DNA from: Chloroflexota bacterium
Lineage (GTDB): Bacteria > Chloroflexota > Limnocylindria > Limnocylindrales > CSP1-4
Assembly: GCA_029778235.1 (NCBI GenBank)
Contig: JAKOQS010000168.1
Coordinates: forward strand, 7,690-71,689
Direction: 5' to 3'
Length of the DNA: 64,000 bases
Below, piece by piece: positions 4,232 to 22,218 of this stretch. Under the pieces are notes generated by a model. The model was not told where the DNA came from, ran no database searches, and saw only the letters and a list, made by a program, of their open reading frames with translations. Within the stretch, counting starts at the first letter, position 1. The number at the start of each line of letters is the position of its first letter. The translations under genes were made by a program, and so were the position numbers.

Positions 4232-4272
4232 AGGCCCCGCGGCGGGGTGGCCGACCGTGTCTCCCGCGCCCT

Positions 4273-4677
4273 CTACCCCGCCCGCCCCCACGCCTCGCGC
4301 AGCCAGGCCTCGACCTCGTCGTCCAGCTCGCCGGCGTCCCGGATCTCCAGGTGATGGACCCAGTGGCGCGGGGACGGGTGCACCACCTCCTTGAACCGCG
4401 GCGAACCGTCCTGCCGCCCGAGGGCGATCGTGAGCACGACCTCGGCCGTCGGCCGCGCCAGGTACCGGCCCGGGTCCCACAGCCACGCGAATCCGCGCGT
4501 GCGCCGGAACGCGACCTGGCTCCTCGTCGCCCGGACGACGTACGGGCCGGTCGCGTCGAGGATCGTCCGGACGCGCGCGAGCGTCGCGAGCGCGACCGGC
4601 CGCCCGACGAAGTGCGCCTCCGCCGGATCCGGGAGGCCGCCCGCGCCGGTCGACTCCGGGATGCCGCCCGTCTCCGT
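4273..4677 (-). CDS. DUF5655-like conserved hypothetical protein; no canonical start codon found, possibly a pseudogene
   Basis: Manual minus-strand translation gives ...AEAHFVGRPVALATLARVRTILDATGPYVVRATRSQVAFRRTRGFAWLWDPGRYLARPTAEVVLTIALGRQDGSPRFKEVVHPSPRHWVHHLEIRDAGELDDEVEAWLREAWGRAG*. It is protein-like with high GC3. It is absent from the ORF track because there is no ATG/GTG/TTG near its 5' end. Confidence 0.4.
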   Translation of the reverse strand, partial: TETGGIPESTGAGGLPDPAEAHFVGRPVALATLARVRTILDATGPYVVRATRSQVAFRRTRGFAWLWDPGRYLARPTAEVVLTIALGRQDGSPRFKEVVHPSPRHWVHHLEIRDAGELDDEVEAWLREAWGRAG

Positions 4678-5995: not shown

Positions 5996-6944
5996 CGTCG
6001 TTCCCCTCCATCCACCGGCCCCGCGGCATGAGGCCGGTGCGGCCCGCCCCGGCGCCGCCGGCGGCCATGAACCCGCCGCCGCCCGTCCGTCTCGCGCCTC
6101 GGGTGCCGCCCAGGTCCGTGATCGCACTGCGGAACGGCTCCGCGTACGCGGTGAAGCCGGCGAACAGCTGGCCCACCTCCTCCGCCGATCGCTCGCCGGA
6201 CGCCTGGAACCATCGGGCGAGCCCCGCCGCGTTCGCCTGCTCGCGCGGGCCGAAGCAGCCGTAGCAGCCGCGTCCCATCCGCGGGCAGATCGCGCCGCAG
6301 CCGGTCTGCGTGACCTGGCCGAGGCAGGCGATCCCCTGAGCGGTCATCACGCAGACGACCCCGCGCCGCTTGCACTCCATGCAGACCGCCTCATCACGCA
6401 GCTGCGGGCGCCGCCCGGTCACGAGCGCCGTCAGCAGCTCGACCAGCTGGTCGGGGCTGATGGGGCAGCCTCGGAGCTCGAAGTCCACCGGGACGTGCTC
6501 CGCGATCGGGGTGGAGCGGGCGAGCGACTCGACGTACTCCGGCGTCGGATAGACGGCTGCCCGGTACGCGTCGTGGTCGGCCCAGTTGCGCAGGGCCTGG
6601 ATGCCGCCCGAGGTCGCGCATGCGCCGATGGTCACGAGGACGCGGGCCTGGCGCCGCAGCTCCTCCACGCGCCGGAGATGGTCGGGCGTGCTGACCGAGC
6701 CCTCGACGAACAGGACGTCGTACGGGCCGCCGGAGCGTGCCGAGCTGGCCTCGGGGAAGTCCACGATCTCGAAGTGGTCGGAGAGGTCGAGCAGGTGGTC
6801 CTCGAGGTCCAGGATCGTCAGCTGGCAGCCGTCGCAGCTCGCGAGCTTCACCACGCCGACGCGCGGTCGAGGAGCCCCGCCCCTCGCGGTCCGGCCATGC
6901 TCGCCCTGGCGGCCGCGATCGGCCGGATGCGCCGTGGCAGCCAT
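5982..6944 (-). CDS. [NiFe]-hydrogenase small (delta) subunit, group 3b-like (HyhS/HydD type)
   Basis: VKLASCDGCQLTILD, GACATSGGIQ, and distal cluster cysteines CMECKRRGVVC...CLGQVTQTGCGAICP...GCYGC. Its ATG shares ATGA with the upstream gene stop at 6944. Confidence 0.9.
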   Translation of the reverse strand: MAATAHPADRGRQGEHGRTARGGAPRPRVGVVKLASCDGCQLTILDLEDHLLDLSDHFEIVDFPEASSARSGGPYDVLFVEGSVSTPDHLRRVEELRRQARVLVTIGACATSGGIQALRNWADHDAYRAAVYPTPEYVESLARSTPIAEHVPVDFELRGCPISPDQLVELLTALVTGRRPQLRDEAVCMECKRRGVVCVMTAQGIACLGQVTQTGCGAICPRMGRGCYGCFGPREQANAAGLARWFQASGERSAEEVGQLFAGFTAYAEPFRSAITDLGGTRGARRTGGGGFMAAGGAGAGRTGLMPRGRWMEGNDDDDR

Positions 6945-8941
6945 CAGATGCCCTCCCGGCCGAACGTGTCGCCGAGCTGCTCGAGCGAGAAGACGGGGCC
7001 ATCCCGACAGACGAAGAAGCGTCCCATCTGGCAGTGGCCGCAGAGGCCGATGCCGCACTCCATGTGCCGCTCGAGCGTGACGTAGATCCGGGAGGTGGTG
7101 ACGCCGCGGCCGGCGAGCGTGTTCGCCGTGGCCTGCATCATCCGCTCCGGCCCGCACACGAAGGCGATCGCGTTCGCGCCCTCCCACTGGGCCTGGTCGA
7201 ACAGCTGGGTGACGACGCCGACGCGTCCCTCCCACTCGGGACCGGCGCGGTCCACCGTGAGGTGGACCTCGATGCCGCCCCGCGATGCCCAGCGCTCCAT
7301 CTCCTCGCGGTAGAGGATGTCCGCCGGCGTGCGCGCGCCGTAGTAGAGGCGGACGTCGCCGAAGCGACGGCGGTCGGCCGCGAGGGCGTGGATGACCGGC
7401 CGCAGCGGCGCGAGGCCGATCCCGCCGGTGACGATGACGAGGTCGCGGCCGACGGCGCGGTCGATCGGCCAGTTGTTGCCGAGCGGCCCGCGGAGGCCAA
7501 GCTGGTCGCCGACCTTCAGGGCGCACATGGCCTTGGTCGCAGGTCCGGCGCCGCGGATCGTCAGCTCGATCCCGTCCACCGTGAACCGGCTGATCGAGAT
7601 CGGCAGCGGCGGGAAGCCCGGGATGGCGACCATCGCGAACTGGCCCAGGCTCCCCTTGCTGAAGGCGGGGTCCGCCCCCGACAAGGTGAGCGTCACCGTG
7701 TCCGCCGTCTCGTGACGGGTGGCCACCACCTGGGCGACCACGAAGTCGTCGAAGCTCGCGGCGACCGGCTCCACCCGCTGAGGCTCGGGCGACAGCGCGA
7801 TCGGTGGAGCGATCGCAACGAGCTCCTCCCGAACGTCGATCCCGACCGGGCACCAGGTGACGCACCGGCCGCAGCCGACGCACCCCGAGGTGCCGAACTG
7901 GTCCCACCAGGTGCCGAACTTGTGCGTCAGCCACTGCCGGTACCGGTCGCGCGGACGGCTCCGGAAGGAGCCGCCCGCCACGCGGGCGAACCCAGGGCTG
8001 AAGCAGCTGTCCCAGGAGCGCTCGTTCGTCGCCGCCTGGCCCTCCATATCCGTCTTCTGGATGACGCTCGTGCAGAAGCACGTGGGACAGGCGAGGGTGC
8101 AGTTGCCGCACGTGATGCACCGCTCGGCGATCTGCGCCCAGCGCGGGTTGTCCAGCTGCGCGAGGAGCCGGTCATGCAGTCCCGCCGTCGGCAGCGGGTC
8201 GCCGATCCGGGCCCGGGTCGCGGCGACGTCCGCCGCAGCCGTGTAGACCTCGACCGGCGTCGCGGGGCGCAGCGCCTTCCCCAGCGGCCCGTCCACGAGC
8301 TCCTGGCCGGCGGGCGAGCCCACGTCGAGGAGGAACCCCTCGTCGAGCTCCGTGAGCGAGATGTCGTAGCCGCGGTCCACCTCGGGGCCGGTCCCCATCG
8401 ACGTGCAGAAGCAGGTCGGCTCCGCGGTGGTGCACTGGACCGCCACGATGAACGCAGAGCTGCGGCGGGCCGCGTAGTCGGCGTCGCGGAAGGGCCCCGC
8501 GTCGAGCACGCGGTCCTGCACGTCGAACGCTGCGATCTCGCAGGCGCGCACGCCGACGAACGCCAGCCGCTGCGCCTGCGGGCGGACGGGTGCGAACTCC
8601 ACGCGGTGGCCGGCGCGGCGGCCGGTGTTCAGCTCGATGGTGGGCGGGAAGACCCACCGCTTCCAGCTGGTGGGTCCCACGACGTAGCCGAACGCCCTTG
8701 CGTCGTCGCGCCTGGTGAGGCGGTACCGGCCCGCAGCCTGGACGTCGCCCACGCCGTGCGGCAGCTCCCCGGCTCCGCGGATCTCGTCGTAGACGATGGC
8801 GCCGTCCGCCACCGTGGGCCCGATGACCGTCCGGCCGTCGGCGCGCAGCGCGGCGACGAGGTCCTCGAGGCCGGAGCGCTCGAGGTACCAGCGTCCGGCC
8901 GTCGTCGTCCGCTCGGGTCGCGTGATCTCGGTCGTCATCAT
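6944..8941 (-). CDS. Fused hydrogenase beta-gamma subunit (4Fe-4S HydB/AsrA-like N-half plus FAD/NAD(P)- and 2Fe-2S-binding HydG/AsrB-like C-half)
   Basis: N-half: CFCTSMGTGP, CITCGNCTLACPTCFCTS, CVGCGRCVTWCPVGID. C-half: ferredoxin-reductase fold (ISISR, GGIGLAPLRPV) and terminal CGIGLCGHCQMG. Confidence 0.88.
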   Translation of the reverse strand: MMTTEITRPERTTTAGRWYLERSGLEDLVAALRADGRTVIGPTVADGAIVYDEIRGAGELPHGVGDVQAAGRYRLTRRDDARAFGYVVGPTSWKRWVFPPTIELNTGRRAGHRVEFAPVRPQAQRLAFVGVRACEIAAFDVQDRVLDAGPFRDADYAARRSSAFIVAVQCTTAEPTCFCTSMGTGPEVDRGYDISLTELDEGFLLDVGSPAGQELVDGPLGKALRPATPVEVYTAAADVAATRARIGDPLPTAGLHDRLLAQLDNPRWAQIAERCITCGNCTLACPTCFCTSVIQKTDMEGQAATNERSWDSCFSPGFARVAGGSFRSRPRDRYRQWLTHKFGTWWDQFGTSGCVGCGRCVTWCPVGIDVREELVAIAPPIALSPEPQRVEPVAASFDDFVVAQVVATRHETADTVTLTLSGADPAFSKGSLGQFAMVAIPGFPPLPISISRFTVDGIELTIRGAGPATKAMCALKVGDQLGLRGPLGNNWPIDRAVGRDLVIVTGGIGLAPLRPVIHALAADRRRFGDVRLYYGARTPADILYREEMERWASRGGIEVHLTVDRAGPEWEGRVGVVTQLFDQAQWEGANAIAFVCGPERMMQATANTLAGRGVTTSRIYVTLERHMECGIGLCGHCQMGRFFVCRDGPVFSLEQLGDTFGREGI

Positions 8942-8963
8942 GGACGCGGCCTCCGAACGCGTG

Positions 8964-9446
8964 TCACGCTCCGGCCGTCGCGTCGCGCGCGAAGAGGTCG
9001 AGGAGCTGGAGCCGCGATGCCGCGAGGCGGCGCGAGACCGCCACGAGGATCCGCGGATAGAGGACCTGGGCGAGGTGCGGGTCCTCGCGCAGTGCGATGC
9101 GCAGTGCCGCGCCCTCGAAGACGACCGACGTCACGGGCTCGATCGTGACCACCGTGGATGTCCCGCGGTACGGCGGGACGATGGCCGACCAGCCCCAGAT
9201 GTCGCCGGGTTCGATCGTCAGGATGGTCACCATCCCGCGTTCCGGGACGAGCGTCCGGAGCGCCATGCGGCCGGCGATGACGACGCCGACCTCCTCGCAG
9301 ACCTCTCCCTCGGTGAGGAGCTCCGTGCCCGTGGGGTACGTCTCCAGGCGCCCCATGTCCGCCAGACGCGTCTGCGCGTCGGGCGGCAGTCCTGAACCGA
9401 ACCACGTCGCGTTGAGCGCCGCGACGAGCGCCGCCGGGTCTCCCAT
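8964..9446 (-). CDS. Cyclic-nucleotide-binding domain protein (stand-alone CAP effector domain, no HTH)
   Basis: cNMP-binding beta-barrel pattern (ELLTEGEVCEEVGVVIAGRMALRT..., GDIWGWSAIV, RLAASRLQLLDLF). About 160 aa from ATG 9446, so no DNA-binding domain is present. Confidence 0.7.
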   Translation of the reverse strand: MGDPAALVAALNATWFGSGLPPDAQTRLADMGRLETYPTGTELLTEGEVCEEVGVVIAGRMALRTLVPERGMVTILTIEPGDIWGWSAIVPPYRGTSTVVTIEPVTSVVFEGAALRIALREDPHLAQVLYPRILVAVSRRLAASRLQLLDLFARDATAGA

Positions 9447-9705: not shown

Positions 9706-10173
9706 TCACCCGTGCGGGCGCAGGATCTCCTCCACCAGCCGGTCCACGAGGAGGGGCAACGCGGCCGCGACCTCGGGCGAGAAGGCCGCACCGATCCCGA
9801 ACGCACGTCCGCCGATCCCCACGAAGGTGCCCTCGGGCGGCCGGCCGCGGAGCGCGGCCGCGAGGCTGATCGCCTGGTCCGGGGGCATCGTGTGCGACGA
9901 GCGGGGCGCTCCGCCGCCCGTGCGGACGGCGACATCGGCGAGGGGGATCGTGACGATCGTCCCGGGAGCCACCCCGACGGCCGCGTCCACGACGATGCAC
10001 CGCGCGCCGTCCGGCACCGCCAGGAGGTGGTCCACCTCCAGCTGGCCGCAGTGGACGATCGTCACCCGGGTGGCGACCAGCGGCGGCAGCGCGGCGACCG
10101 CCGCCGCGGCGGCGGCATCGTCGCCGCGCTCGGGCTCGCCGCAGACGAGCAGGGTGGTGCGATGCGCGCTCAC
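9706..10173 (-). CDS. Hydrogenase maturation endopeptidase (HycI/HoxW family)
   Basis: LLVCGEPERGDDAAA near the N-terminus, VVDA and SSHTMPP metal-ligand-type positions, about 155 aa, first gene of the hydrogenase operon. Confidence 0.75.
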   Translation of the reverse strand: MSAHRTTLLVCGEPERGDDAAAAAAVAALPPLVATRVTIVHCGQLEVDHLLAVPDGARCIVVDAAVGVAPGTIVTIPLADVAVRTGGGAPRSSHTMPPDQAISLAAALRGRPPEGTFVGIGGRAFGIGAAFSPEVAAALPLLVDRLVEEILRPHG

Positions 10174-10214
10174 GCGGACAGGATGCCCGCTCCGCCGCGG
10201 ACACGCCGCCCTGT

Positions 10215-11624
10215 ATGGTTCGCGGCGTGAAGCGCACCGTCCGTCCGTTCGTCCCGCCGCCCCCGACCCGGCTCCCGCTGCGCTCCGACGCCGACCGCTC
10301 CGCCCGGTACGACGCCGGGCGCGCGCTGCGGGACCGGGCGCCGCGCGAGGCGCACGCCGAGTGGCGGCCGGCGCCCGATCGCCCCGATCCGATCGCCCTC
10401 CTCCAGGAGCAGGCCGCGACGCGGGTCCCCGACCTCGTGCCGATCCGGTACGGCCGCATGGTCGCCTCGCCGTTCTCCTTCCTGCGCGGCGCCGCGCTCG
10501 TGATGGCCGCCGACCTGGCGCCCACGCCCTCGAGCGGGATCCGGGTCCAGCTCGCCGGCGACGCGCACGTCGCGAACTTCGGCTTCTACGCCTCCCCCGA
10601 GCGCGACCTGCTGTTCGACGTCAACGACTTCGACGAGACCCTCCCCGGGCCCTGGGAGTGGGACGTGAAGCGGCTCGCGGCGAGCGCCGTCGTCGCCTCG
10701 CGCTCGATGGGGCATCCCCGGGCGCAGGGGCTCGCTGCGGCGCGCGGTGCGACGGAAGCCTACCGGCGGGTGACGCGGTCGCTCGCCCGCCTGCGCAGGC
10801 TCGACGTGTGGTACGCCCATATCGACGAGTCCGAGATCGCGGCCGCGGCGCACGGGCCGGCGGCGCGGATGCTCGAGGAAGTGGTCGGGAAGGCCCTGGA
10901 GCGCGACACGACCCACGCGGTGGACCTGCGGACCGACCCCGCGACAGGCGAGGAGCGCATCGCGGACGCGCCGCCGCTCATCGTCCACCGGCCGGACCTC
11001 GTCGACCTCGACCGGCTGGGGCGACGCTTCGAGCGGTATCGCCGGACGCTCGTGAGCGACCGTCGCGCGCTGCTCGCCCGATACCGTCTCGCGGATGTGG
11101 CGCTGAAGGTGGTGGGCGTCGGGTCCGTCGGGACGCGGTGCTTCGTCGCGTACCTGTCGGCCGGCCGGGACGACCCCCTGTTCCTCCAGGTCAAGGAGGC
11201 GCAGGCGTCCGTGCTCGAGCGGTTCCTGGGCCGCAGCCGGCTCCGGAGCCACGGCGAGCGGGTCGTCGCCGGGCAGCGGATCGTCCAGGCGGCCTCGGAC
11301 GCGTTCCTCGGGTGGGGCTGGGACGAGGACGGCCATGACTATTACTGGCGACAGCTGCGCGACTGGAAGGGCAGCTTCGACGTCGCGACGATGAGGCCGG
11401 TCGATCTCGACGCGTACGCGCGGCTCTGCGGCGCGGCGCTCGCCCGGGCGCACGCCCGGTCGGGCGACCCCGTGATGCTCGCGGGGTACCTGGGATCGGG
11501 CACGGCGTTCGAGCGGTCCGTCGCGGCCTTCGCCGACGCCTACGCGGACCAGACGGAGCGGGACCTCGCCGAGCTGAAGGCGGCGGTGGCCGACGGAAGG
11601 ATCGAGGCCCGCACGGGGGTGTAG
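10215..11624 (+). CDS. DUF2252 domain-containing protein
   Basis: Characteristic LVPIRYGRMVASPFSFLRGAA...AGDAHVANFGFYASPERDLLFDVNDFDET...WDVKRLAAS. An alternative leaderless GTG start lies at 10227. Confidence 0.85.
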   Translation: MVRGVKRTVRPFVPPPPTRLPLRSDADRSARYDAGRALRDRAPREAHAEWRPAPDRPDPIALLQEQAATRVPDLVPIRYGRMVASPFSFLRGAALVMAADLAPTPSSGIRVQLAGDAHVANFGFYASPERDLLFDVNDFDETLPGPWEWDVKRLAASAVVASRSMGHPRAQGLAAARGATEAYRRVTRSLARLRRLDVWYAHIDESEIAAAAHGPAARMLEEVVGKALERDTTHAVDLRTDPATGEERIADAPPLIVHRPDLVDLDRLGRRFERYRRTLVSDRRALLARYRLADVALKVVGVGSVGTRCFVAYLSAGRDDPLFLQVKEAQASVLERFLGRSRLRSHGERVVAGQRIVQAASDAFLGWGWDEDGHDYYWRQLRDWKGSFDVATMRPVDLDAYARLCGAALARAHARSGDPVMLAGYLGSGTAFERSVAAFADAYADQTERDLAELKAAVADGRIEARTGV

Positions 11625-11729
11625 GCGCGTGGGCCTTCCGGCGCGCGGCGCATCGCGGGCGCACCCCGGGGTGCGTCCAGCGATCCGCGTGCCATCCGAC
11701 CTGTCACGGGGGCGACGCAGCCTCGTGCC

Positions 11730-12377
11730 ATGGGTGACGCACTCCCGGCCCGCGGTCAGGTCCCACATCGGCCCGCCGACCCCGCCGACCCCACCGATCC
11801 CGGTCGTGCGCGCCTGACCGTGGCCGCGGCCATCGCCGGACTCCGGCCCATCGCCACGCAGTCGCACGACGGGCTGACGCTCGTGCTGCTCGGCGCCGGG
11901 CGCGGCGAGCCGGGCGGCACCCACCGGGCGGCCTCCGGCACCGCGCTCGACGACCCGGTCGCGGCGGTCTTCGCCCTGCCGCCGGGCGTGACCGGGGTCG
12001 CCGTCGGCGTCTTCGACCGCATCGTCTCCCTCCACGCGTTCGACGGGCACGATGCGCTCGCCGCGGCATGGGACGACCTCGTCGCGTGCGCGGTCGAGGC
12101 CTGGCGCGCCGAACGGGACGCCGTGGCCGCGGGGTCGACTCCTCCGCCCGGCCGCCGGTCGCCGGACGACGGCGCGGCCGTGCGCCTCCTGCGGCGCGCG
12201 GCGATCGCACTCGACGGGGCGACGATCGCGCCGCGTCTCGGCGCGACCCCGGGATCCGAGGTGCGGATCGTCGGCGAACGGGTCCAGGGAGTGGCTCGCG
12301 TCGCGGACGGCCGCGCCGTGCAGCTCGCGCTCCTCCCACGCGAGCCGGACGACCCATCGGACGGGCTGGTCCCGTGA
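11730..12377 (+). CDS. Hypothetical protein
   Basis: High GC3 and protein-like composition from about 11820 onward (GTG 11820 is an alternative start). Opposite-strand ORFs here are Arg-rich shadows. A faint, unverified resemblance to DUF6569-type proteins. Confidence 0.5.
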   Translation: MGDALPARGQVPHRPADPADPTDPGRARLTVAAAIAGLRPIATQSHDGLTLVLLGAGRGEPGGTHRAASGTALDDPVAAVFALPPGVTGVAVGVFDRIVSLHAFDGHDALAAAWDDLVACAVEAWRAERDAVAAGSTPPPGRRSPDDGAAVRLLRRAAIALDGATIAPRLGATPGSEVRIVGERVQGVARVADGRAVQLALLPREPDDPSDGLVP

Positions 12378-12574
12378 GGCGACCAGCGACGACGGCGAGG
12401 AGCCAAGCGGCGCGATGTCCACGCCCGGCCCGGCGCCGGGCACATGCGGGGCGGCCGGCAGAGGGGGCACCCGGCCGTCCCGCACCAGCCGCGATGCGCT
12501 CGCGGTCCGACCGCGGCCGGAGGGCGGCGTCGCGGCGATCCGCGGGTGAGCCACGCGCGGTACGCTCCATCTCG

Positions 12575-14365
12575 ATGCGATCCGCCTCTCCGCGGACGCG
12601 TGCACGGGGGGCGTCCGTGGATCCTGACGCGACGGCCGGAGGCGGGCCTGGGGGCGACGCCGCATCGCCGGAGGACCTTGTCTTCGACCGGCTCCGCTCG
12701 GCCCTGCCCGGCGCCGTGCGGATCTACCGCAACGTCCGCTGGATCGCGGCGCCGGAGGACGGGGGGCCCAACGCGGACGGCGAGACGGACCTGCTGGTCG
12801 TCGACCCGGACCGCGGGATCCTCGTCGTCGAGGTGAAGGGCGGGGTCGTGGACGCGGACGCCTACGGCCGCTGGTACGCGGGGCGTAGGGCACTGCAGAT
12901 GTCACCGTTCGCCCAGGCGGAGCGCGGCAAGCATCGCCTCGTGCGTCTGCTCACGGCCGACCCCGACTGGCTCGGTCCGGAGCCAGCCGCCGGCCACGTC
13001 GTGGCCTTCCCGGGCGTGGACTGGACCACCGCCGGCCCGGGCGTCCGTGCACTCGGGGCGGACGCGCCCCGCGCCATCTGCCTGGACGCGGCGGACCTCG
13101 CATCCGATGCGGCGGCTTCGGCGGGGATCGAGCGCGCATGGGCGTTCTGGCTCGGCGCCGGCGGCGGTCGCCCCATCCCGCCCCGGTCGCTCGAGGTGAT
13201 CGCCAGGGCGGTCGCGCGTCCGGTCGCGTTGCGGCCCCTCCTCCGCCGCGCCGTCGAGGCCGGCGAGGGCGAGACCCGCACGATGACGGAGCACCAGGCC
13301 CGGATCCTGGAGGGGCTGTGCGCCGTCAATCGCCGCGCGTCCATCTCGGGCGGCGCCGGGACGGGCAAGACCCAGCTCGCCATGGAGCGTGCCCGCAGGC
13401 TCGCGCGCGACGGCTTCCGGACGCTCCTCGTGTGCTTCAACCAGCCCCTGGCGCGGGCGTTCTCACGCGACCCTGCGCTCGCCGCCCTGATCGACGCCGG
13501 GATGCTCGAGGCCCATACGTTCCACGACCTCGCCCGGCGCCTGGAGGAGGAGGCGGGCATCCTCCCGCCGGTCCCGGGGGCATCCGACGGTCCGGCGGAC
13601 CTCGCGGCATGGTTCGACGCCATCGCGGACCGGTTCCTCGACGCCGTCGAGCGGGTCCCGCTCCGGTTCCACGCCATCGTGGTGGACGAGGGCCAGGACT
13701 TCGCCCGCGCCTGGCTCGAGTCGCTGCCGTTCCTGCTCGACGACCCTGCGGAGGACCCGCTGTACGTCTTCCACGATCCAGGCCAGGGGCTCTACCGGAC
13801 GGACGAGGTCGCGGCGCTGGGACTCACCCCCTACGTCCTGCAGGAGGACTGCCGCAACGCCGGCGACATCCACGACCTCGCCGAGCGGTTCGGCGGCCGC
13901 GCCACGGCCACCGTCGCGCTCCGCGAGCTGCCGGGCGGGGTGGAGGTGGTCTCGGCCGAGCCCGGCGCGCAGACGGTCGATGCCGTCCGGCGCGCGCTGC
14001 ACGCGGTCATCGACGACGGGCGCGTCCCGCCGGGCGACGTGGTCGTGCTCGTGGGGATGGCCCTGCATCGCAGCGACGTGTGGAGGGCCCGCGTGTTCGG
14101 CAACCAGGTCCTCTGGAACGGGAGCGTGGCCGACGACGGACACCAGCTGGGCCTCGCCGCGGACGCCGTCCCGGAGCAGCCGATGGACACCGTCCTGTGC
14201 GAGACGATCCACCGGTTCAAGGGCCTCGACGAGAAGGTCGCCATCCTCGCGGACCTGCGGGCGGACGACCCGCGGCTGGACCAGCTGCTCTACGTCGGCA
14301 TCACCCGCGCGCGTGACCACCTGATCGTGGTCGCACCGCCAGCCGTCGCCCGGAGGCTCGCGTGA
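12575..14365 (+). CDS. NERD-domain nuclease fused to SF1 (UvrD_C/AAA_19-type) helicase
   Basis: N-terminal NERD-type (D/E)xK segment GETDLLVVDPDRGILVVEVKGG. Walker A ISGGAGTGKTQ, Walker B VVDEGQDF, TIHRFKGLDEKV, LLYVGITRARDHLIVV. ATG 12575 lies 8 nt after a TACGCT -10. Confidence 0.85.
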   Translation: MRSASPRTRARGASVDPDATAGGGPGGDAASPEDLVFDRLRSALPGAVRIYRNVRWIAAPEDGGPNADGETDLLVVDPDRGILVVEVKGGVVDADAYGRWYAGRRALQMSPFAQAERGKHRLVRLLTADPDWLGPEPAAGHVVAFPGVDWTTAGPGVRALGADAPRAICLDAADLASDAAASAGIERAWAFWLGAGGGRPIPPRSLEVIARAVARPVALRPLLRRAVEAGEGETRTMTEHQARILEGLCAVNRRASISGGAGTGKTQLAMERARRLARDGFRTLLVCFNQPLARAFSRDPALAALIDAGMLEAHTFHDLARRLEEEAGILPPVPGASDGPADLAAWFDAIADRFLDAVERVPLRFHAIVVDEGQDFARAWLESLPFLLDDPAEDPLYVFHDPGQGLYRTDEVAALGLTPYVLQEDCRNAGDIHDLAERFGGRATATVALRELPGGVEVVSAEPGAQTVDAVRRALHAVIDDGRVPPGDVVVLVGMALHRSDVWRARVFGNQVLWNGSVADDGHQLGLAADAVPEQPMDTVLCETIHRFKGLDEKVAILADLRADDPRLDQLLYVGITRARDHLIVVAPPAVARRLA

Positions 14366-17300
14366 CGGGGATCGCTCCGGGCGTCAGGACGGCACTCGTC
14401 CCGACGGCGGAGCAGCGGGCGATCGTCGAATGGCGCGGCGGGCCCCTCATGGTCCTCGCGGGCGCCGGCACCGGGAAGACCACGGTCATCGTCGAGCGCG
14501 TCCGCCACCTGCTCGCGACGGAGCCCGGCCTGCAGCCCGAGGGCATCCTGGTCCTCACGTACAACGTGAAGGCGACCGAGGAGCTCCTCGGACGGTTCGA
14601 GCGCGCTCTCGGCCTCGAGGTCGCCCGGCGGCTCACAGTCGAGAACTTCCACGGCTTCGGCTTCGGCATCGTGCGGAGGCACTGGCGCGAGCTGGGCCTG
14701 CCGGCCGACCCGATGGTGCTCGACGAGGTGGGCCAGCGTCTCCTGCTGCAGGGTCTGCGCGGGGGGATCCGGTTCCGCCTGTATGACGGGTGGGGCTGGC
14801 ACCAGGCGGAGCTCCGCGAGCTGATCGCCTCGATCGACCGGGCTCGCGACGAGGGCGTGACCTCCGACGACTACCGCGCCGTGGCGCAGGCGGGCCTCGA
14901 AGCGGTGGCAGCGGAGCTCGGGGAGGACCGGTACGCGGCGGCGCTCGCCGCCCTGGACCGGCCGGACGGCCTGGCCGCCGCCAAGGCGACGCATGCCAGG
15001 CAGCAGGCCGACGATCCGGCGTCGATCGTCGCGATCGCCCGACGGATCGTCCGCGGCGACGGCCGGGACGCGGCCGGCGGCATGACCACGGAGCAGCTCC
15101 GCGCGGCCGACGAGCTCGCCGGTCGGCTGGACGACCAGGCGTGCGTGCTCGCGGCGCTCGGGGTGCTGGAGGAGGCCGTCGCGTACGAGGAGTACGCGGC
15201 CGAGCTCGTCCGGACCGGCGCCGTGGACTTCGCCGAGCAGATCCGGCTGGCCGCGCTCCTCCTGCGGGAGCGCCCGGAGGTGCGCTGGGAGCACCTGGAC
15301 CGATACCGGCACGTGCTGGTGGACGAGTTCCAGGACGCGAACGTCGCGCAGATCGACCTGCTCGAGCTCGTCACCCTCGCGCCCGGGCACGTGCCGGACG
15401 TGACCGTCGTCGGCGACGACGACCAGTCGATCTACCGGTTCCGCGGCGCCAGCTACGCGGCGTTCGACGAGTTCGCCGCGCGGTTCGGGCGTCGCCGTGA
15501 CGGCGACCCCGCCAGCCTCGAGCGCGTGGTCGCGAGGCTGCCGTTGCTCGAGAACCGCCGGTCCGTGGCGCCGGTCGTCACGGCCGCGTCGCGGCTCATC
15601 GAGCGGAGCGCCCGGCGCCTCAAGGAGGACCTCCGCCTCGACGCGCTCCGTGGGGCGGGAGCCCCCGTCGAGCTGGTCGTCTCAGACACCGCGGAGCGCG
15701 AGGCCGAGCTGCTCGGCGCGCGCATCGACGCGCTGCGCGCCACGGGCACGGTCGCCGTCCTCGTGCGGAAGCGCCGGCACGCCGACGCGCTCGTTGCGAC
15801 CCTGCGTCGGCGCGGGATCGACGTGGACGTGGAGGCCCGGCCCGACGCGCTCGCCTCGCCGGACGTCGCGGACATCGTGGCGCTCCTCCGTGCGGCGAAC
15901 GACCCGGCCGACGACATCGCCACCGCGCGGGTCCTGCTCGCGGGCCCGTGGGCGCTCGGCAACAAGGGGTTCGCCCGGTTCCTGCGCGAGCGCCCTGCGC
16001 GGGGACGCACGCTGCTCGACGGGGCTCGGCTCTTCGCCGAGGATCGGCCTGCCGACGAGTCGGATCCCGCGCCCGACGCCGCAGCAACCGGCCCGATGCC
16101 GGCCACCCGCCGGGCCGCCGCGTGGCCGGACCCGGAGCTCGACGCGCTCCGCGCCCGGGTCCGCGCGGCCGTGGCCGCGGTCGACGAGGTGGCCGCTCTC
16201 GCGCGCGTCGACACGGGCTACGCGGCCGCGGTGCGCGCCACGGCCCTGCTGCGCTCGGTGGCGGAGGCGCTCGCGGCACCGGCCGCGGGCGAGCCGGCCC
16301 CGGGCGACGACGCAGGGGCGTCGCCGACGCTCGCGGACCTCGGCTCGGTCACGCGGCTGCGGGCCATCGCCCGGTTCCTCACGTACGCGGGCGACGTCGC
16401 GGGAGGGCGACGACCGCTGCCGCTGCACGCCCTCATCCGCCACCTCGACGACCTCGCGCAGGTCGGCGGCACCCTCGAGGTGGAGGATGCCACGCCCCCG
16501 GCGCCCTCGGCGGTCCGCGTGATGACGATCCACCAGGCCAAGGGCCTCGAGTTCGACGCGGTCGTCGTCCCGCGCGTGTGCGCGGGCGAGCTGCCCGACG
16601 AGCGGGCCGAGGCGCTCCCGATCCCCGTCGCCCTGCTCCGCCAGCAGCCCGAGCCGGGGTTCGAGGTGGACGAGGAGCGTCGCCTGCTGTACGTCGCCAT
16701 GACGCGGGCACGGGACCGGCTGATCGTCTCCACGGTGGACGCCCTGTCGCCCGGCCGCGGGGCGCAGCGCCGCAGCGCGTTCGTGGACGACCTGCTCGGC
16801 ATCGACCGCGACGTCTCGGCCGCCGGGACGCTCCCGGCGGACGAGCTGTTCGCCGGGAGCGTGCCCTCGGACGTCACGCTGCGCGACGCGCGCCGCGACC
16901 AGATGCCGGATGCGCTCGATCGCGCCGCCGCCCTCGCGGCCATGGGGCTCACCCACGCGGTCGGGGCCACGGACCCGTCACTCGGCCGTGCGCGCATGGT
17001 CCTCGGGATCCTCGCCCTGCTCGACGACCCGCGCACCGACCCGGCCGCCCGCGAGGCCCTTCGCTCCGACCTGCTGCGGACGCTCGACGGGCCGACGCCG
17101 GGCCGCGTGGACATCGCGCCCCCACCCAGCTACGCCGACCTGCTGCGGGAGAAGCAGAGCCACTCGTCGCTGTCCGAGTACCGCGCGTGCCCCCTGCGGT
17201 ACGCGTTCCGCTACCTCTACCTCCTGCGGCCGCCGCAGCACGCGTACCTCACCTTCGGCTCCAGCGTGCACGAGGTCCTCGAGGCGGACGTCCGGGCCCG

Positions 17301-17952
17301 GATCGCCGCCCGGCGGACGGGGGAGGCGGCCGCCCCCGGCGCGCTGGACGCGCTCGCGGACCGCTTCGCACGGGTCTGGCTCGACTCGTCCACCGGCGAG
17401 GCCACCCCCGTCGAGCGGGACGACTTCCATCGGCGCGCCCGGGTCGCGTTCGAGCAGTATCTCGGGCACGAGGGACGCCGCGACGCGCAGCCGGTCGCCG
17501 TGGAGGCGCGGTTCGACTTCGTCGTCCCGGGCGAGGGCGACGGCCCGCCCATCCGCGTCCACGGCGCGATCGACCGCATCGACCGGCGAGGGGACGGGCG
17601 CATCGAGATCGTGGACTACAAGACGGGGCGCGCGAAGACCCCCGCACAGGTGGACCACGACGACCAGCTCACGCTGTACGCGCTCGCCGTGGCCGACGGC
17701 GCGGTCAGCGACGAGGTGACCGGCGAGACCATCCCTGCACCCGACCTGCTCACGCTCTTCTTCGTCGAGCACGGCCTGTGGGTCACCACCACCCGCACGC
17801 CCGTCCAGCTCGACGCGATGCGCGCGTGGATCGCGGCGACGGTCGCGCGGATGCGCGCCGGCGACTTCGCGGCCACGCCGTCGGACCAGGCGTGCAGTCG
17901 CTGCGACTACGCCGCGCTGTGCCCGGACCGCTACACGGGGCCGGCCACGTGA
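14362..17952 (+). CDS. UvrD/AddA-like SF1 helicase with C-terminal PD-(D/E)XK Cas4/AddB-type Fe-S nuclease
   Basis: All SF1 motifs are intact: AGAGTGKTT, VLVDEFQDAN, VVGDDDQSIYRFRGA, LLENRRS, TIHQAKGLEFD, LLYVAMTRARDRL. Nuclease domain: YRACPLRY...IDRIDRRGDGRIEIVDYKTG...QLTLYALA...CSRCDYAALCP. The GTG start overlaps the upstream stop (GTGA). Confidence 0.9.
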   Translation: MTGIAPGVRTALVPTAEQRAIVEWRGGPLMVLAGAGTGKTTVIVERVRHLLATEPGLQPEGILVLTYNVKATEELLGRFERALGLEVARRLTVENFHGFGFGIVRRHWRELGLPADPMVLDEVGQRLLLQGLRGGIRFRLYDGWGWHQAELRELIASIDRARDEGVTSDDYRAVAQAGLEAVAAELGEDRYAAALAALDRPDGLAAAKATHARQQADDPASIVAIARRIVRGDGRDAAGGMTTEQLRAADELAGRLDDQACVLAALGVLEEAVAYEEYAAELVRTGAVDFAEQIRLAALLLRERPEVRWEHLDRYRHVLVDEFQDANVAQIDLLELVTLAPGHVPDVTVVGDDDQSIYRFRGASYAAFDEFAARFGRRRDGDPASLERVVARLPLLENRRSVAPVVTAASRLIERSARRLKEDLRLDALRGAGAPVELVVSDTAEREAELLGARIDALRATGTVAVLVRKRRHADALVATLRRRGIDVDVEARPDALASPDVADIVALLRAANDPADDIATARVLLAGPWALGNKGFARFLRERPARGRTLLDGARLFAEDRPADESDPAPDAAATGPMPATRRAAAWPDPELDALRARVRAAVAAVDEVAALARVDTGYAAAVRATALLRSVAEALAAPAAGEPAPGDDAGASPTLADLGSVTRLRAIARFLTYAGDVAGGRRPLPLHALIRHLDDLAQVGGTLEVEDATPPAPSAVRVMTIHQAKGLEFDAVVVPRVCAGELPDERAEALPIPVALLRQQPEPGFEVDEERRLLYVAMTRARDRLIVSTVDALSPGRGAQRRSAFVDDLLGIDRDVSAAGTLPADELFAGSVPSDVTLRDARRDQMPDALDRAAALAAMGLTHAVGATDPSLGRARMVLGILALLDDPRTDPAAREALRSDLLRTLDGPTPGRVDIAPPPSYADLLREKQSHSSLSEYRACPLRYAFRYLYLLRPPQHAYLTFGSSVHEVLEADVRARIAARRTGEAAAPGALDALADRFARVWLDSSTGEATPVERDDFHRRARVAFEQYLGHEGRRDAQPVAVEARFDFVVPGEGDGPPIRVHGAIDRIDRRGDGRIEIVDYKTGRAKTPAQVDHDDQLTLYALAVADGAVSDEVTGETIPAPDLLTLFFVEHGLWVTTTRTPVQLDAMRAWIAATVARMRAGDFAATPSDQACSRCDYAALCPDRYTGPAT

Positions 17953-19130
17953 CGGTGCGCTTCATCCACACCGCTGATTGGCAGCTCGGGATGACGCGTC
18001 ATTTCCTCTCGGGTGAGGCGCAGGCCCGGTTCGCCCAGGCCCGGCTCGACGCCATCGCCCGGATCGGCGCTCTCGCGCGCGAGCATCGCGTCGAGTTCGT
18101 CGTGGTGGCAGGCGACGTCTTCGAGACGAACCAGGTGACGCGCCAGACGGTCCTCCGGGCGTGCGACGCGCTCCGGTCGATCGACGTCCCGGTCTTCCTC
18201 CTGCCCGGGAACCACGAGCAGCTCGACGCCACGAGCGTCTTCCGCCAACCCACGTTCGCGCGGTCGGCCCCGCCGAACGTCGTCGTCATCGACTCGACCG
18301 AGCCCCGGCGGATCGACGGCCGGCCCGGGCTGGAGGTCGTGGGCGCCCCGCGGATGACCAAGCGGACCCTCGGCGACCCGCTCGAGCCGGGGTACTCCGC
18401 GCTCGCCCCGGCGCCCGGCGTGACCCGGATCCTGGTCGGCCACGGGATCGTGGACGCGGTCATGCCGGTCGGGGATGCGCCCGACGAGGAGACCCGGATC
18501 CGCCTCTCGCCGGTCCAGGCGGCCATCGCCGACGGCCGCGTGGCATACGTCGCGCTCGGCGACCGCCACTCCACCACCCGCGTGGACGCCGCAGGGCGCG
18601 CCTGGTACGCGGGCGCCCCGGAGCCCACCGCCTACGTCGAGACCGACGCCGGCAACGTGCTGCTCGTGGAGATCGACGAATCGGGGGCGGGGACGCCGGC
18701 CGCTGCCGCCGCGCCCTGTGCCGTGACGCCGCTCCGGGTCGGGACCTGGCGGTTCGTGCTCGGCGACCACCGACTCGACGGCCCAGCGGACCTGGAGGCC
18801 CTGGGGCGCTGGTTCGCGGCGATGCCCGGGAAGGAGCGGACCGTCGTGAAGGTGACGCTCCGCGGCACCCTGGCGCTGCGGGACAAGGCGCGCCTCGACG
18901 CGCTCCTCGCCGAGGAGCGCGAGCGGTTCGCCGCGATCGAGGAGTGGGAGCGCCACGCGGACCTGGTCGTCATCCCCGACGACGCGGACTTCGCCGACCT
19001 GGACCTCGGCGGGTACGCGGCCGACGCGGTGGCGGAGCTCCGACGCGCCGCGGACGGCGGGGTCGCGGATGCAGCCACGGCAGCCGACGCACTGGCGCTT
19101 CTCGTGCGCCTCGCCGGGAGGCCCGCGTGA
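17949..19130 (+). CDS. sbcD: SbcD/Mre11-like metallophosphoesterase (DNA repair exonuclease)
   Basis: Calcineurin-type motifs IHTADWQLG, VVVAGDVFE, LLPGNHE, VGHG. The GTG start overlaps the helicase-nuclease stop (GTGA). Confidence 0.85.
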   Translation: MTVRFIHTADWQLGMTRHFLSGEAQARFAQARLDAIARIGALAREHRVEFVVVAGDVFETNQVTRQTVLRACDALRSIDVPVFLLPGNHEQLDATSVFRQPTFARSAPPNVVVIDSTEPRRIDGRPGLEVVGAPRMTKRTLGDPLEPGYSALAPAPGVTRILVGHGIVDAVMPVGDAPDEETRIRLSPVQAAIADGRVAYVALGDRHSTTRVDAAGRAWYAGAPEPTAYVETDAGNVLLVEIDESGAGTPAAAAAPCAVTPLRVGTWRFVLGDHRLDGPADLEALGRWFAAMPGKERTVVKVTLRGTLALRDKARLDALLAEERERFAAIEEWERHADLVVIPDDADFADLDLGGYAADAVAELRRAADGGVADAATAADALALLVRLAGRPA

Positions 19131-19212
19131 GCGGGGTCCGACCGAGCGGACGCGGCCGGCCGAGCGGACGCCGCGGACGCGGCGGCCGGGGCACCGCCAC
19201 GGGGACTCGGGC

Positions 19213-21885
19213 GTGAGCGGCCCGCTCCGGATCGAGCGGATCCGGGTCACGGACTTCCGCGGCGTCCGCGAGCGCGAGGTCCGCTTCGCCGAAGCCGGGG
19301 TCACCGTCGTGGAGGGGCCCAACGAGACCGGCAAGTCGAGCCTCGCCGATGCGCTCGACATGCTCCTCGACTTCCGCGACGCGTCGCGGCACCGCGACGT
19401 CCTCGCCGCCCAGCCGGTCGGCACCGACGCGGGCCCGATGGTGGAGGCCGACCTTCGTGCCGGGCCCTGGCGCTTCACCTACCGGAAGCGATGGATCCGC
19501 GATCGGGCGACCACGCTCGTGGTGCGCGAGCCGCGCGCGGAGCAGCACGTCGGCGACGCCGCGCACGACCGCGTGCACGCGATCCTCGCCGAGCAGGCGG
19601 ACCTCGGCCTCTGGCGCGCCCTCCGCCTGATGCAGGGCGAGAAGGTGGCTCCCGCGCATGTCGAGGCGGCCGGCTCGCTCGGGGCCGCCCTGGAACGCGC
19701 CGCCGGGGGCTCCGACCCCTCCGACGGCGCCGGGCTGTTCGAGCGCGCCCGGGCGGAGAGCGAGATCTACTGGACGGCGACGGGCCGCGCCCGCGACCCG
19801 CTGACGGCCGGCGAGACCGCGGTCGCCGCCGCCGAGCGCACGGTCGCGGATCTCCGCTCGTCGATCGCGGCCGTTGACGCGGACGCCGATGCGCTCGCCC
19901 GCGCCTCGGCCGAGCTGGCGGGCATGCGCGAGGCGATCGCTGCACAGGAGGCCGCGGTCCACGAGCGCGAGGCACGCGCTGCCGAGGTGGACAGGCTCGC
20001 AGCCGCGGCCCAGGTCCACAAGGCGGCATTCGACGCCGCGACCGCCCGGTCGGCCGAGGTCGCCGCGATCGCCCGCCGTCGCGAGGAGCTGACGACCGCG
20101 CTCGCGGACGCGACGCAGCGCCGCGACGCCCTCTCGGTCGCGGATGCCGCTGCCCGCGACCGCATGGTCGAGCTGGACGCAGCGCTCGGGTCGGCGTCGA
20201 GGGCCCTGGCGGACGCGCGGGGTGCGCGCCTGTCCGCGGCCGCCCTGGTGACGCGGCGCCGAGCCGAGCGCGACCTTCTGCGGGACCGCGGTGATCTGGG
20301 CTCGGCGCTCGAGCAGAAGGCGCGGCTGGACCGCCAGGCCGAGGAGGGTCGGGCCGCGCAGGCCGCTGCGGACGCGAACCCCGTCACGGACGAGGTGCTG
20401 CGCCGCGTCGAGGATGCGGCCCGCCGCCTGGAGCTCGCCCGCGCGCGCCTCGACGCAGGCGCCGGCGAGCTGCGGATCGCCGCGATCGCGCCCGTCACGC
20501 CGGTCGTGGACGGCGCGCCGGTCCATCTCGCGCCGGGTGAGGAGGCAGTCCGGCCCATCGGCGAGGGCATCGCGGTGGAGATCCCCGGCGTCGCCCGCAT
20601 CGTCGCCAGGCCCGGCGGCTCGGTCGCGGCGCTCCGGGCGGAGATCGCCGACGCGGACTCCGCGCTCGCCACCGGCCTCGCCGCCGCCGGCAGCGTGGAC
20701 GTCGCCGAGGCGCGCGCCCGCGCCGCCGACCGGCTCCGCAACGAGGAGGCGGCTCGTCGCGCGCGCGAGGCCGCGACCGCGATCCTCGCCGGCGAGCGTC
20801 CGCTCGCGCTGGAGCAGCGGATCGCGACCCTGCGCGCACGGGTGGAGGAGGCCGAGTCGAGCCTGGGAGGGGACGGCGCCGTGCCGGGCCTCGGCGTGCC
20901 GGGCCTCGCCGCGCAGGCCGACACCGTCCGGGCGGCGGCTGACCTCGAGGCCGCCGAGACGGCCGACCGGGCCGCGGCCGCCGACCTCGCTGTGGCCGAG
21001 GAGGCCGAGCGTGCTGCGCGTGCGGCCGCGGACGCGGAGCGCGCCGCGGGCCAGGAGCGCAGGGTGGAGCTCGGCGTCGCCGCCGCTCGCGCCCGGGAGG
21101 CGGAGGCGGCCCTGGCCGCCGAGCGAGCGACGCTGCCGGACGACCAGCTCGCGCTGCGCTCGGCATCCGCCGAGGCGGAGGTCCGCGACGCCGCCGCCGC
21201 GCGGGCCGCCGCGGACGTCGCGCTCGCCGAGGCCAATCCCGACCAGGCCCGCGCTCTCGCGGAGAACGCGCGCCGGACCCTCGAGACGATCCACGCTCGG
21301 CGACAGCAGCTCGTCGTGGACCAGGCGCGCCTCTCGGGCTCGCTGGCGCGCAGCGGGGAGGATGGGCTCGGCGAGCGCCTCGAGGAGGCCGAGGCCGCCG
21401 CCGAGCGGGCCCGCGACGACCTCGCCCGCCTCCGCCGTCGGGCCGACGCGGCCCGTCTCCTCCACGACACGCTCCGGCGCCACCGCGACGCCGCCCGGCG
21501 GCGCTACGTCCTGCCGCTCACCGAGCGCCTCGAGTCCCTCGGGCGGATCGTCTTCGGCCCGGATGTCGCCGTGGACGTCTCCGACGAGCTCGCGGTCTCC
21601 AGCCTCACCCGCGGAGGTCGGACGATCGCCTGGGATCAGCTGAGCGTCGGGACCCGAGAGCAGCTCGGCGTGCTCGTCCGCGTCGCATGCGCGGAGATCG
21701 TCGCGCCGGATGGCGGCGTCCCCGTGATGCTCGATGACGCGCTCGGGTGGTCGGACCCGGAGCGCCTCGAGGCCATGGGCGCGGTCCTGGCGCGTGCGGG
21801 CGCCTCCACCCAGGTCATCGTCCTCACCTGCTTCCCTGACCGGTACGTCCACGTGGGCGGGGCCACCGTGGTGCGGCTCGGATAG
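19213..21885 (+). CDS. sbcC: SbcC/Rad50-like SMC-type ATPase lacking a CxxC zinc hook
   Basis: Walker A VVEGPNETGKSS, about 650 aa of Ala/Arg/Glu-rich coiled coil, signature LSVGTREQL, Walker B/D-loop VPVMLDDALG. GTG 19213 places Walker A about 35 aa from the N-terminus. Confidence 0.85.
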   Translation: MSGPLRIERIRVTDFRGVREREVRFAEAGVTVVEGPNETGKSSLADALDMLLDFRDASRHRDVLAAQPVGTDAGPMVEADLRAGPWRFTYRKRWIRDRATTLVVREPRAEQHVGDAAHDRVHAILAEQADLGLWRALRLMQGEKVAPAHVEAAGSLGAALERAAGGSDPSDGAGLFERARAESEIYWTATGRARDPLTAGETAVAAAERTVADLRSSIAAVDADADALARASAELAGMREAIAAQEAAVHEREARAAEVDRLAAAAQVHKAAFDAATARSAEVAAIARRREELTTALADATQRRDALSVADAAARDRMVELDAALGSASRALADARGARLSAAALVTRRRAERDLLRDRGDLGSALEQKARLDRQAEEGRAAQAAADANPVTDEVLRRVEDAARRLELARARLDAGAGELRIAAIAPVTPVVDGAPVHLAPGEEAVRPIGEGIAVEIPGVARIVARPGGSVAALRAEIADADSALATGLAAAGSVDVAEARARAADRLRNEEAARRAREAATAILAGERPLALEQRIATLRARVEEAESSLGGDGAVPGLGVPGLAAQADTVRAAADLEAAETADRAAAADLAVAEEAERAARAAADAERAAGQERRVELGVAAARAREAEAALAAERATLPDDQLALRSASAEAEVRDAAAARAAADVALAEANPDQARALAENARRTLETIHARRQQLVVDQARLSGSLARSGEDGLGERLEEAEAAAERARDDLARLRRRADAARLLHDTLRRHRDAARRRYVLPLTERLESLGRIVFGPDVAVDVSDELAVSSLTRGGRTIAWDQLSVGTREQLGVLVRVACAEIVAPDGGVPVMLDDALGWSDPERLEAMGAVLARAGASTQVIVLTCFPDRYVHVGGATVVRLG

Positions 21886-21963
21886 GGGAGGGGCGATGCG
21901 GCTGTTGACCTGCACGTCCGGCCGATCCATGCTCGCCCGAGGCAGCACGAGCGAGGTCCGACG

Positions 21964-22218
21964 GTGAGCAGCGTGGACGAGCGGGGCCGGATCACCATCG
22001 AGAAGGCCATCCGCGAGGAGCTCGGCATCCACGCCGGGGACGAGACCGTCCAGCGCGTGGAGAACGGCAGCATCGTGATCGACGTCGTGCCCGGACGGCA
22101 CCGCCGATCATCGTTCGCCTCGCTGGCGACCCCGGGTCAGCCGCCGGCCGACGCGTCGGGGGTCGCGGTGCCCGAGCCCCGGCGGAGGACGAGGGACCCC
22201 GGCCCGCGGCAGGGCTGA
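21964..22218 (+). CDS. AbrB/MazE/SpoVT-family DNA-binding protein (antitoxin-like, no cognate toxin adjacent)
   Basis: N-terminal swapped-hairpin signature VDERGRITIEKAIREELGIHAGDE and a disordered C-terminal tail. A TTGACC-17-CATGCT promoter-like element lies upstream. Confidence 0.6.
   Translation: MSSVDERGRITIEKAIREELGIHAGDETVQRVENGSIVIDVVPGRHRRSSFASLATPGQPPADASGVAVPEPRRRTRDPGPRQG

Follow-up and report, generated by a model that had tools for sequence, protein, structure and literature searches.

What role does a nuclease–helicase play when its gene is overlapped with that of a second, larger helicase–nuclease? Fusions of a nuclease to a helicase (Nhi, Hna, the Schlafens and Dna2) are a recurring way to recognise and destroy nucleic acids. 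The question is raised by a 64,000-nt stretch of a Chloroflexota metagenome-assembled genome (MAG; contig JAKOQS010000168.1, positions 7,690 to 71,689; hereafter the window), in which a gene at 12575..14365 on the + strand encodes a NERD nuclease fused to a superfamily 1 (SF1) helicase. This NERD-helicase stands where the AddB or AdnA subunit of a two-subunit helicase–nuclease might be expected. We find that it is an optional, patchily inherited, defence-type add-on and no obligate AddB/AdnA-like subunit, and that it has been recruited in this Chloroflexota lineage to head a translationally coupled operon. The reading that we favour, with a probability of about 0.5, is that the operon is an accessory module for degrading foreign DNA, with the NERD-helicase contributing another motor and another nuclease.

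A NERD nuclease in front of a compact SF1 motor

The gene lies in a window of about 75% G+C, in which the third-position GC frame plot backs coding on the + strand and rises only past about 12600. Its open reading frame (ORF) encodes 596 amino acids (aa) from ATG 12575, the codon from which we count residues throughout, but the product is more likely a protein of 582 aa that begins at GTG 12617. This start is probable because the GTG and the leader in front of it are kept in relatives, including a deletion remnant described below, and because a run of G precedes the GTG. Residues 1–27 are disordered in an AlphaFold2 model of the protein (mean predicted local distance difference test (pLDDT) score 86.6), in which the NERD region forms beta strands with pLDDT above 90.

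A preliminary description of the locus had placed a (D/E)xK NERD core at the N-terminus (DLLVVDPDRGILVVEVKGG), followed by a compact SF1 helicase, and had allowed that profile searches might instead point to a housekeeping family with no NERD domain. The core is present as described. Pfam NERD (PF08378) matches residues 33–145 (12671..13009, +) at 39.8 bits against a gathering cut-off of 22.1 (E 7e-10), and the catalytic residues of this PD-(D/E)XK domain, D72, E86 and K88, are invariant in an alignment of 55 homologues, together with E70, G81 and G90. The helicase core follows at residues ~237–590 (13283..14344, +). It contains all three strings named earlier (GAGTGKT, DEGQD and TRARDHL) within a motif set that comprises the Walker A GAGTGKT (259–266), CFNQPL, TFH, DEGQDF (371–376), FHDPxQ, CRN with R427, RFKGL (547–551) and YVGITRARDHL; Pfam AAA_19 and UvrD_C_2 score above their cut-offs, and UvrD-helicase is also matched. 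SF1 motifs I, Ia, II, III, IV, V and VI are complete. Because their key residues are invariant in the 55-sequence alignment, the ATPase looks intact, as had been proposed by contrast with AddB. The protein thus looks like an active single-chain nuclease–helicase, NERD first and then a compact UvrD/Schlafen-like SF1 motor, as far as sequence can tell. Chance is no explanation for the ORF, because it has 732 homologues at E ≤ 1e-3, the best 120 of which range from E 0 to about 1e-126.

The same domain order had earned the protein the label 'Nhi-like'. Nhi (SERP2475) is a 606-aa protein with an N-terminal PD-(D/E)XK nuclease and a DUF2075 helicase (preprint 10.1101/776245). Since Nhi combines these two parts, and DUF2075 is a Schlafen-type helicase, the label is right for the architecture and probably for the broad helicase class; both proteins are about 600 aa long, and both have a patchy spread and defence genes as neighbours. 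It does not carry over to the family. The Nhi hidden Markov model (HMM; PADLOC PDLC02372) reaches only residues 237–286 of the window protein, around the Walker A P-loop (E 8.9e-5), and matches 35 of the 55 family members (best 2.5e-6), whereas PADLOC RTasNERD-Hel (PDLC03813) aligns at model positions 47–513 of 519 (E 1.7e-47) and matches all 55 (best 1.6e-68), as does the PADLOC candidate C3a187, 'NERD+UvrD'. Unlike Nhi, the window protein has a nuclease of the NERD subtype and lacks the C-terminal glyoxalase-like domain; its helicase sequence is SF1A-like, whereas the structural homologues reported for Nhi are SF1B; and its gene is translationally coupled to others, whereas Nhi acts alone. 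To judge from these profiles, the NERD-helicases are a family separate from Nhi, of Nhi class in architecture and probably in broad helicase type. The AbiO model also matched the Walker A segment only (E 1.5e-6). Pfam PF09848 had no match in the window protein at E ≤ 0.01 and, among the homologues listed, is carried only by P0086 and P0109.

RTasNERD-Hel corresponds to cluster 485 of Mestre et al. 2022, a group of NERD-helicases that neighbour 7 of 17 UG34 reverse transcriptases (PMC9226505). It and C3a187, both predicted entries, share the NERD plus helicase architecture with the window protein, but the partners at the window are a UvrD–Cas4 nuclease and an SbcCD-like pair. A reverse-transcriptase association was rejected for this locus, where the genes from 10215 to 22218 include no reverse transcriptase.

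To which motors is the helicase closest? A search of the PDB with the single sequence gave no match, sequence searches there found no solved structure of the family, and a family profile was needed. Its top matches were human SLFN11 (7.9e-16) and SLFN5 (2.7e-13), aligned over motifs I/Ia, II and V/VI, followed by UvrD, PcrA and GajB (1e-9 to 1e-7) and HelD; Upf1 was weaker (3e-4), and RecD2 and Dna2 were not significant (E 0.2–0.25). Foldseek with the model likewise put SLFN11 first (3.6e-16), then Upf1 and UvrD, with UvrD/Rep/PcrA at about 1e-11, a ranking that by itself cannot settle whether the motor is RecD-like or UvrD-like. By sequence affinity the helicase appears nearer to SF1A (UvrD, PcrA and GajB) than to SF1B (Upf1, RecD2 and Dna2). 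A RecD-like 5′–3′ motor that would form a RecBCD-style bipolar pair with the neighbouring helicase–nuclease is disfavoured by the UvrD-like motifs Ia, III and V and by the profiles, which point to SF1A/Schlafen. The human group III Schlafens (SLFN11, SLFN5 and SLFN14) also carry a nuclease N-terminal to an SF1 helicase and give the best profile and fold matches in the PDB, but they are eukaryotic, their N-terminal nuclease is a Schlafen-core RNase and not NERD, and full-length template-modelling scores are about 0.43.

Translational coupling, recurrent linkage and loss

The stop codon of the NERD-helicase gene (TGA 14363–14365) overlaps the GTG start (14362) of the next gene by 4 nt, so that GTGA occupies 14362–14365; this is the overlap reported earlier, and the same pair of genes is also overlapped in two relatives, L001 and L100. 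The downstream product (UvrD-nuclease; 14362..17952, +; 1196 aa) is a UvrD-type SF1A helicase fused to a Cas4/AddB-type four-cysteine PD-(D/E)XK nuclease, as read from Pfam (UvrD-helicase E 1e-49, UvrD_C, and PDDEXK_1 E 5e-44) and from its motifs (GAGTGKT, DEFQD, TIHQAKGLEFD, EIVDYK and C...CSRCDYAALC), of which those of the helicase are intact. It had been called AddA-like, but the protein is nearer to Rep/UvrD/PcrA (PDB matches of 1e-40 to 1e-34) and to the AdnB chain 6ppu_B (1e-32) than to AddA (3u44_A, 3e-17). A canonical AddA identity was rejected, with addA models scoring 118–130 bits against cut-offs of 708–861 and the recB cut-offs also far off.

Two more cistrons follow. An SbcD/Mre11-like metallophosphoesterase (17949..19130, +; 393 aa; Pfam Metallophos 4e-9, backed by the ORF and the frame plot) begins at a GTG that the UvrD-nuclease stop overlaps by 4 nt; TIGR00619 sbcd matches it at 3e-11, under the cut-off. 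The fourth gene encodes an SbcC/Rad50-like ABC ATPase (19213..21885, +; 890 aa), which Pfam AAA_23, SMC_N and AAA_27 match on the N-terminal P-loop only and NCBIfam ASRP and Rad50 match weakly. The pair was rejected as a canonical SbcCD, since the NCBIfam sbcd and Rad50 scores are far under cut-off, and the ATPase was rejected as a Lamassu, Gabija or Septu component, since PADLOC LmuB (2e-10), GajA and PtuA cover only its first ~55 residues, the P-loop. In the window the SbcD-like gene ends 82 nt (19131–19212) before the likely start of the SbcC-like gene, GTG 19213; the same two genes overlap by 4 nt in L001 and L100 and lie 22 nt apart in L101.

The order NERD-helicase, UvrD-nuclease, SbcD, SbcC is identical and syntenic in L001, L100 and L101. 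L001 and L100 have a 4-nt overlap at each of the three junctions; L101 has an overlap only where NERD-helicase meets UvrD-nuclease. The L101 NERD-helicase (2664–4452) is split by a frameshift near residue 385–393, which would make it a pseudogene unless the split is an error of long-read assembly.

The linkage extends beyond these loci. In a tree of homologues, the window falls in a Chloroflexota clade of 37 rows (Shimodaira–Hasegawa-like approximate likelihood ratio support 100), and 16 of the 30 scorable loci of that clade have a same-strand UvrD-PDDEXK gene no more than 5 kb away, versus 1 of 29 outside it. The label 'linked' is more clustered in the tree than in all of 500 shuffles. In a survey of the window's class (151 genomes, 35 genera), 12 genomes carry both genes, 16 the NERD-helicase only, 10 the UvrD-nuclease only and 113 neither, which favours co-occurrence (odds ratio 8.5, Fisher p 3e-5, without phylogenetic correction). 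A second kind of coupling is seen in an uncultured Thermomicrobiales MAG (CAYWXR010000002.1; locus L046, 3965–11596), where a complete AdnAB-like pair (proteins of 1006 aa and 1004 aa that both have UvrD and PDDEXK_1) is joined by a 4-nt overlap to the NERD-helicase as third cistron; this association is independent, because its gene order differs from that of the window. The NERD-helicase is thus recurrently but facultatively coupled to RecB-family helicase–nucleases. A conserved third gene between NERD-helicase and UvrD-nuclease was looked for at other loci and rejected, the intervening genes being mixed (YccF-like, ARG/ARG-phosphatase, HD and unknown). One Chloroflexia MAG (L021) has tandem NERD-helicase paralogues (7469–9136 and 10001–11689), with a UvrD-nuclease about 3 kb downstream.

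In a genome of the same genus, G035, the partners persist and the NERD-helicase does not. The locus (L086, on G035:C84) reads DUF2252, 470 bp, UvrD-nuclease, SbcD and SbcC. The segment at 6548–7021, which corresponds to 11688–14365 of the window, is a deletion scar that keeps the leader, its hairpin, the GTG and about 20 NERD-helicase codons ('SSEDLV') and runs into a 48-codon remnant ORF still ATGA-overlapped with the UvrD-nuclease start. The rest of the NERD-helicase gene is deleted, and the ARPP-1-like gene that precedes it in the window was lost together with it.

These observations bear on whether the NERD-helicase and the UvrD-nuclease form a stoichiometric heterodimer in which the former is the obligate second subunit and takes the place of AddB/AdnA. 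Such a complex would account for the GTGA overlap kept in L001 and L100, for the ATGA overlap that persists in the G035 remnant and for the frequency of linkage in the clade, and it would bring two motors and two nucleases together, as in AdnAB. Yet G035 has UvrD-nuclease, SbcD and SbcC without the NERD-helicase, UvrD-nuclease orthologues elsewhere stand alone among metabolic genes, ten genomes of the class carry the UvrD-nuclease only and sixteen the NERD-helicase only, and L046 holds both AdnAB-like subunits as well as a NERD-helicase. The protein itself does not resemble the subunit that it would replace. AddB and AdnA carry an N-terminal, often inactive, SF1-like domain and a C-terminal RecB/AddB nuclease in about 1000–1200 aa; the NERD-helicase has the reverse domain order and half the size, shares with AddB, AdnA and RecC only the SF1 fold, and is dispensable. 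No NCBIfam addB model matches it, its sole NCBIfam match being RecD2 at E 0.004. We regard an obligate heterodimer as improbable, and the placement 'where AddB/AdnA would be' as a positional analogy.

The module also diverges faster than its surroundings. Identity to L100 is 57% for the ARPP-1-like protein, 77% for UvrD-nuclease, 83% for NERD-helicase and 87% for SbcD, against 91–94% for flanking genes. Two types of UvrD-nuclease occupy the same syntenic slot, that of the window (14362–17952) and that of L001 (11686–15432) and L086 (2697–6590), and are 41% identical to one another; within a type, identity is 77–79% (window, L100 and L101) or 77% (L001 and G035), whereas SbcD is about 80% identical across both types and the flanks 75–90%. 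This pattern suggests in-situ allele replacement or very fast divergence of the UvrD-nuclease. Fast divergence and such an allele pattern are hallmarks of conflict or accessory loci, although not proof of one.

Foreign DNA or broken chromosomes as possible substrates

All of the components are rare in the class: the NERD-helicase occurs in 28 of the 151 genomes (14 of the 35 genera), the window's subtype of UvrD-nuclease in about 22 and the SbcC-like gene in 3, and most genomes carry only another UvrD-type match. The NERD-helicase family as a whole has hundreds of members, with about 45–50% identity in Chloroflexota and about 30% in cyanobacteria, proteobacteria, planctomycetes and others. Some members are found on plasmids, and 50,697 phage genome records yielded one partial match. 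The source genome has a second UvrD-PDDEXK helicase–nuclease, of the type found in most genomes of the class (C242:16835-20000; 1135 aa; solo, with DUF4446 and HAD genes on its flanks), a RecB-like exonuclease that stands alone (C88:8250-9050) and a second pair of SbcD-like and SMC-like genes (C341:3125-5147); an adjacent AdnA/AdnB-type pair was not found in this 91%-complete MAG.

The surroundings of homologues abound in conflict genes, which include McrBC with PIN/RHH, PemK, a MvaI/BcnI-type restriction–modification system with its methylase, an Mrr/AspBHI-type endonuclease, Vsr, a type III methyltransferase with Res and, in Thermomicrobium roseum, a type III-B CRISPR system. One homologue lies on a mobilizable Azospirillum plasmid beside DarT, UvrD, a YprA-like helicase and DUF1998. 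Genes for ARG and for PTP-SAK ('Swiss Army Knife') phosphatases also recur beside homologues (for example, at L097 5730–7646 and L002 14094–15614). ARG-centred conflict systems with ARPP and REase-plus-helicase accessories were predicted by Iyer et al. 2022 (PMC9503650), and the window's ARPP-1-like gene is predicted to belong to these same systems.

The ARG connection raises the prospect that the NERD-helicase is an independent immunity protein, either a single-gene effector of the Nhi type or, within an ARG/ARPP-type conflict system, its effector arm, and stands by chance before an unrelated repair operon. Family members are often stand-alone, the published ARG systems have both ARPP and REase-plus-helicase accessories, and in the window the ARPP-1-like gene is adjacent and was co-lost in G035. 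However, the translational overlap with UvrD-nuclease is kept in three relatives, linkage to RecB-family helicase–nucleases arose at least twice with different gene orders, and the genes at the window locus include neither ARG nor a phosphatase. An independent role here seems to us improbable.

The main rival to a defence module is housekeeping or stress repair of double-strand breaks. Bacillus subtilis has addB, addA, sbcD and sbcC as neighbours, and thermophilic archaea have herA–mre11–rad50–nurA operons. In this light the four genes would encode an end-resection machine like AddAB–SbcCD or archaeal HerA–NurA–Mre11–Rad50, with the NERD-helicase as a second motor–nuclease for long-range resection. 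The gene content fits, with SF1 helicase–nucleases, an Mre11/Rad50-like pair and overlapped cistrons: the window locus shares with AddAB, AdnAB and RecBCD an SF1 helicase fused to a RecB/Cas4-type nuclease, SbcD/SbcC-like genes come after it as in the Firmicute addB–addA–sbcD–sbcC cluster, and the gene before it also has motor and nuclease modules. The chromosomal site is syntenic in relatives, and in L046 the NERD-helicase is overlapped onto the AdnAB-like pair amid metabolic genes. Core repair sits poorly, however, with components as rare as these, with a source genome that has another UvrD-PDDEXK of the common type and another SbcD/SMC-like pair, with allelic replacement or rapid divergence of the UvrD-nuclease, with homologues in restriction–modification, CRISPR and toxin–antitoxin neighbourhoods and with deletion of the NERD-helicase in the sister genome. 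We consider a repair operon unlikely, although less so than the alternatives above, and core double-strand-break repair is a less probable role for the module than nucleic-acid defence or the restriction of plasmids and phages.

In the accessory module that we favour, DNA ends, or blocked ends, would be bound and opened by the SbcCD-like complex together with the UvrD-nuclease, which would move 3′–5′ and cut. The NERD-helicase, produced in step with the UvrD-nuclease, would supply the second motor and the second nuclease, allowing processive degradation of both strands of linear or foreign DNA. The sequences show the domains, the coupling of the genes, their repeated linkage and the dispensability of the NERD-helicase, whereas protein contacts, polarity and biological target in this scheme are inferred. 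A similar logic has been predicted for type I-G Tiamat, whose partner, a NERD plus SF1 (UvrD-like) helicase, would feed single-stranded DNA to a partner nuclease (bioRxiv 10.64898/2026.09.30.754977). Compared by description, both cases add a helicase–nuclease to another nuclease; unlike that system, the window locus has no Tiamat/GHKL ATPase.

Several points weigh against a role in degrading foreign DNA. All defence calls for the NERD-helicase family amount to guilt by association, because no experiment exists for it (a literature search found no assay of the family), and the PADLOC RTasNERD-Hel model stems from a predicted association with reverse transcriptases, which this locus lacks. The locus is chromosomal and adjoins a hydrogenase operon, and at least four relatives share its synteny, so its inheritance looks vertical over the short term; the flanks of L046, too, are metabolic genes. 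Two helicase–nucleases with SbcCD may equally be the expected content of a double-strand-break resection operon. The linkage may in part reflect inherited synteny and not function, because a nearby UvrD-nuclease is missing for about half of the NERD-helicases in the clade and the intervening genes vary; the co-occurrence test in the class, too, is without phylogenetic correction. Finally, the source genome is a MAG with 7.8% contamination.

A more specific form of the favoured reading is that the clade's NERD-helicases are modular 'bolt-on' subunits, docking on RecB-family helicase–nucleases (UvrD–Cas4 in the window, AdnAB-like in L046) and re-purposing or arming an end-resection machine, here with a hook-less SbcCD, against foreign DNA. 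This idea is doubtful in the present state of the evidence. If true, it would define a previously undescribed class of composite end-degrading immune complexes, with the window and G035 as its natural plus and minus variants; a literature search found no paper on NERD together with UvrD and SbcCD. The case offers a conserved, active-looking NERD-helicase family, two independent translationally coupled associations with RecB-type machines and a natural deletion variant, and it makes concrete the question of whether accessory nuclease–helicases are optional subunits of resection complexes and whether their addition turns repair-type machinery to defence. If the operon serves only as an auxiliary to repair, it would still be a new gene arrangement for Chloroflexota, of modest importance.

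Flanking genes and the leader

From 10215 to 22218 the genes run in the order DUF2252, ARPP-1-like, NERD-helicase, UvrD-nuclease, SbcD-like, SbcC-like and MazE-like. The ARPP-1-like gene (11730..12377, +; 215 aa) lies directly upstream of the NERD-helicase and matches Pfam PF20208 (ARPP-1) over its C-terminal part only, at 27.7 bits against a cut-off of 27 (E 2e-6). Its orthologues in L001, L100 and L101 are 47–57% identical to it, and that of L101 (1667–2449) has a confident precomputed ARPP-1 match.

At the other end, the module is flanked by a gene for a MazE/AbrB-type antitoxin-like protein (21964..22218, +; Pfam MazE_antitoxin 2e-5). L101 has it in the same place behind the module, with a PemK toxin gene following. 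At the position of the window that matches the region past this pair, no gene-sized ORF has coding-type third-position GC; L101 itself has a separate gene there (13346–15193), encoding a 615-aa protein with AAA_16 and SLFN-g3_helicase (PF09848).

Between the ARPP-1-like gene and the NERD-helicase, a scan of 11600–12700 revealed no sigma-70 promoter and no T-tailed terminator pattern. The leader does contain a GC-rich hairpin with a 14-bp stem (12445..12483, +; fold −45.6 kcal/mol, z −2.4). L001 (89% over 56 nt) and the G035 remnant both keep it, and it could act as a regulatory element or terminate the upstream gene.

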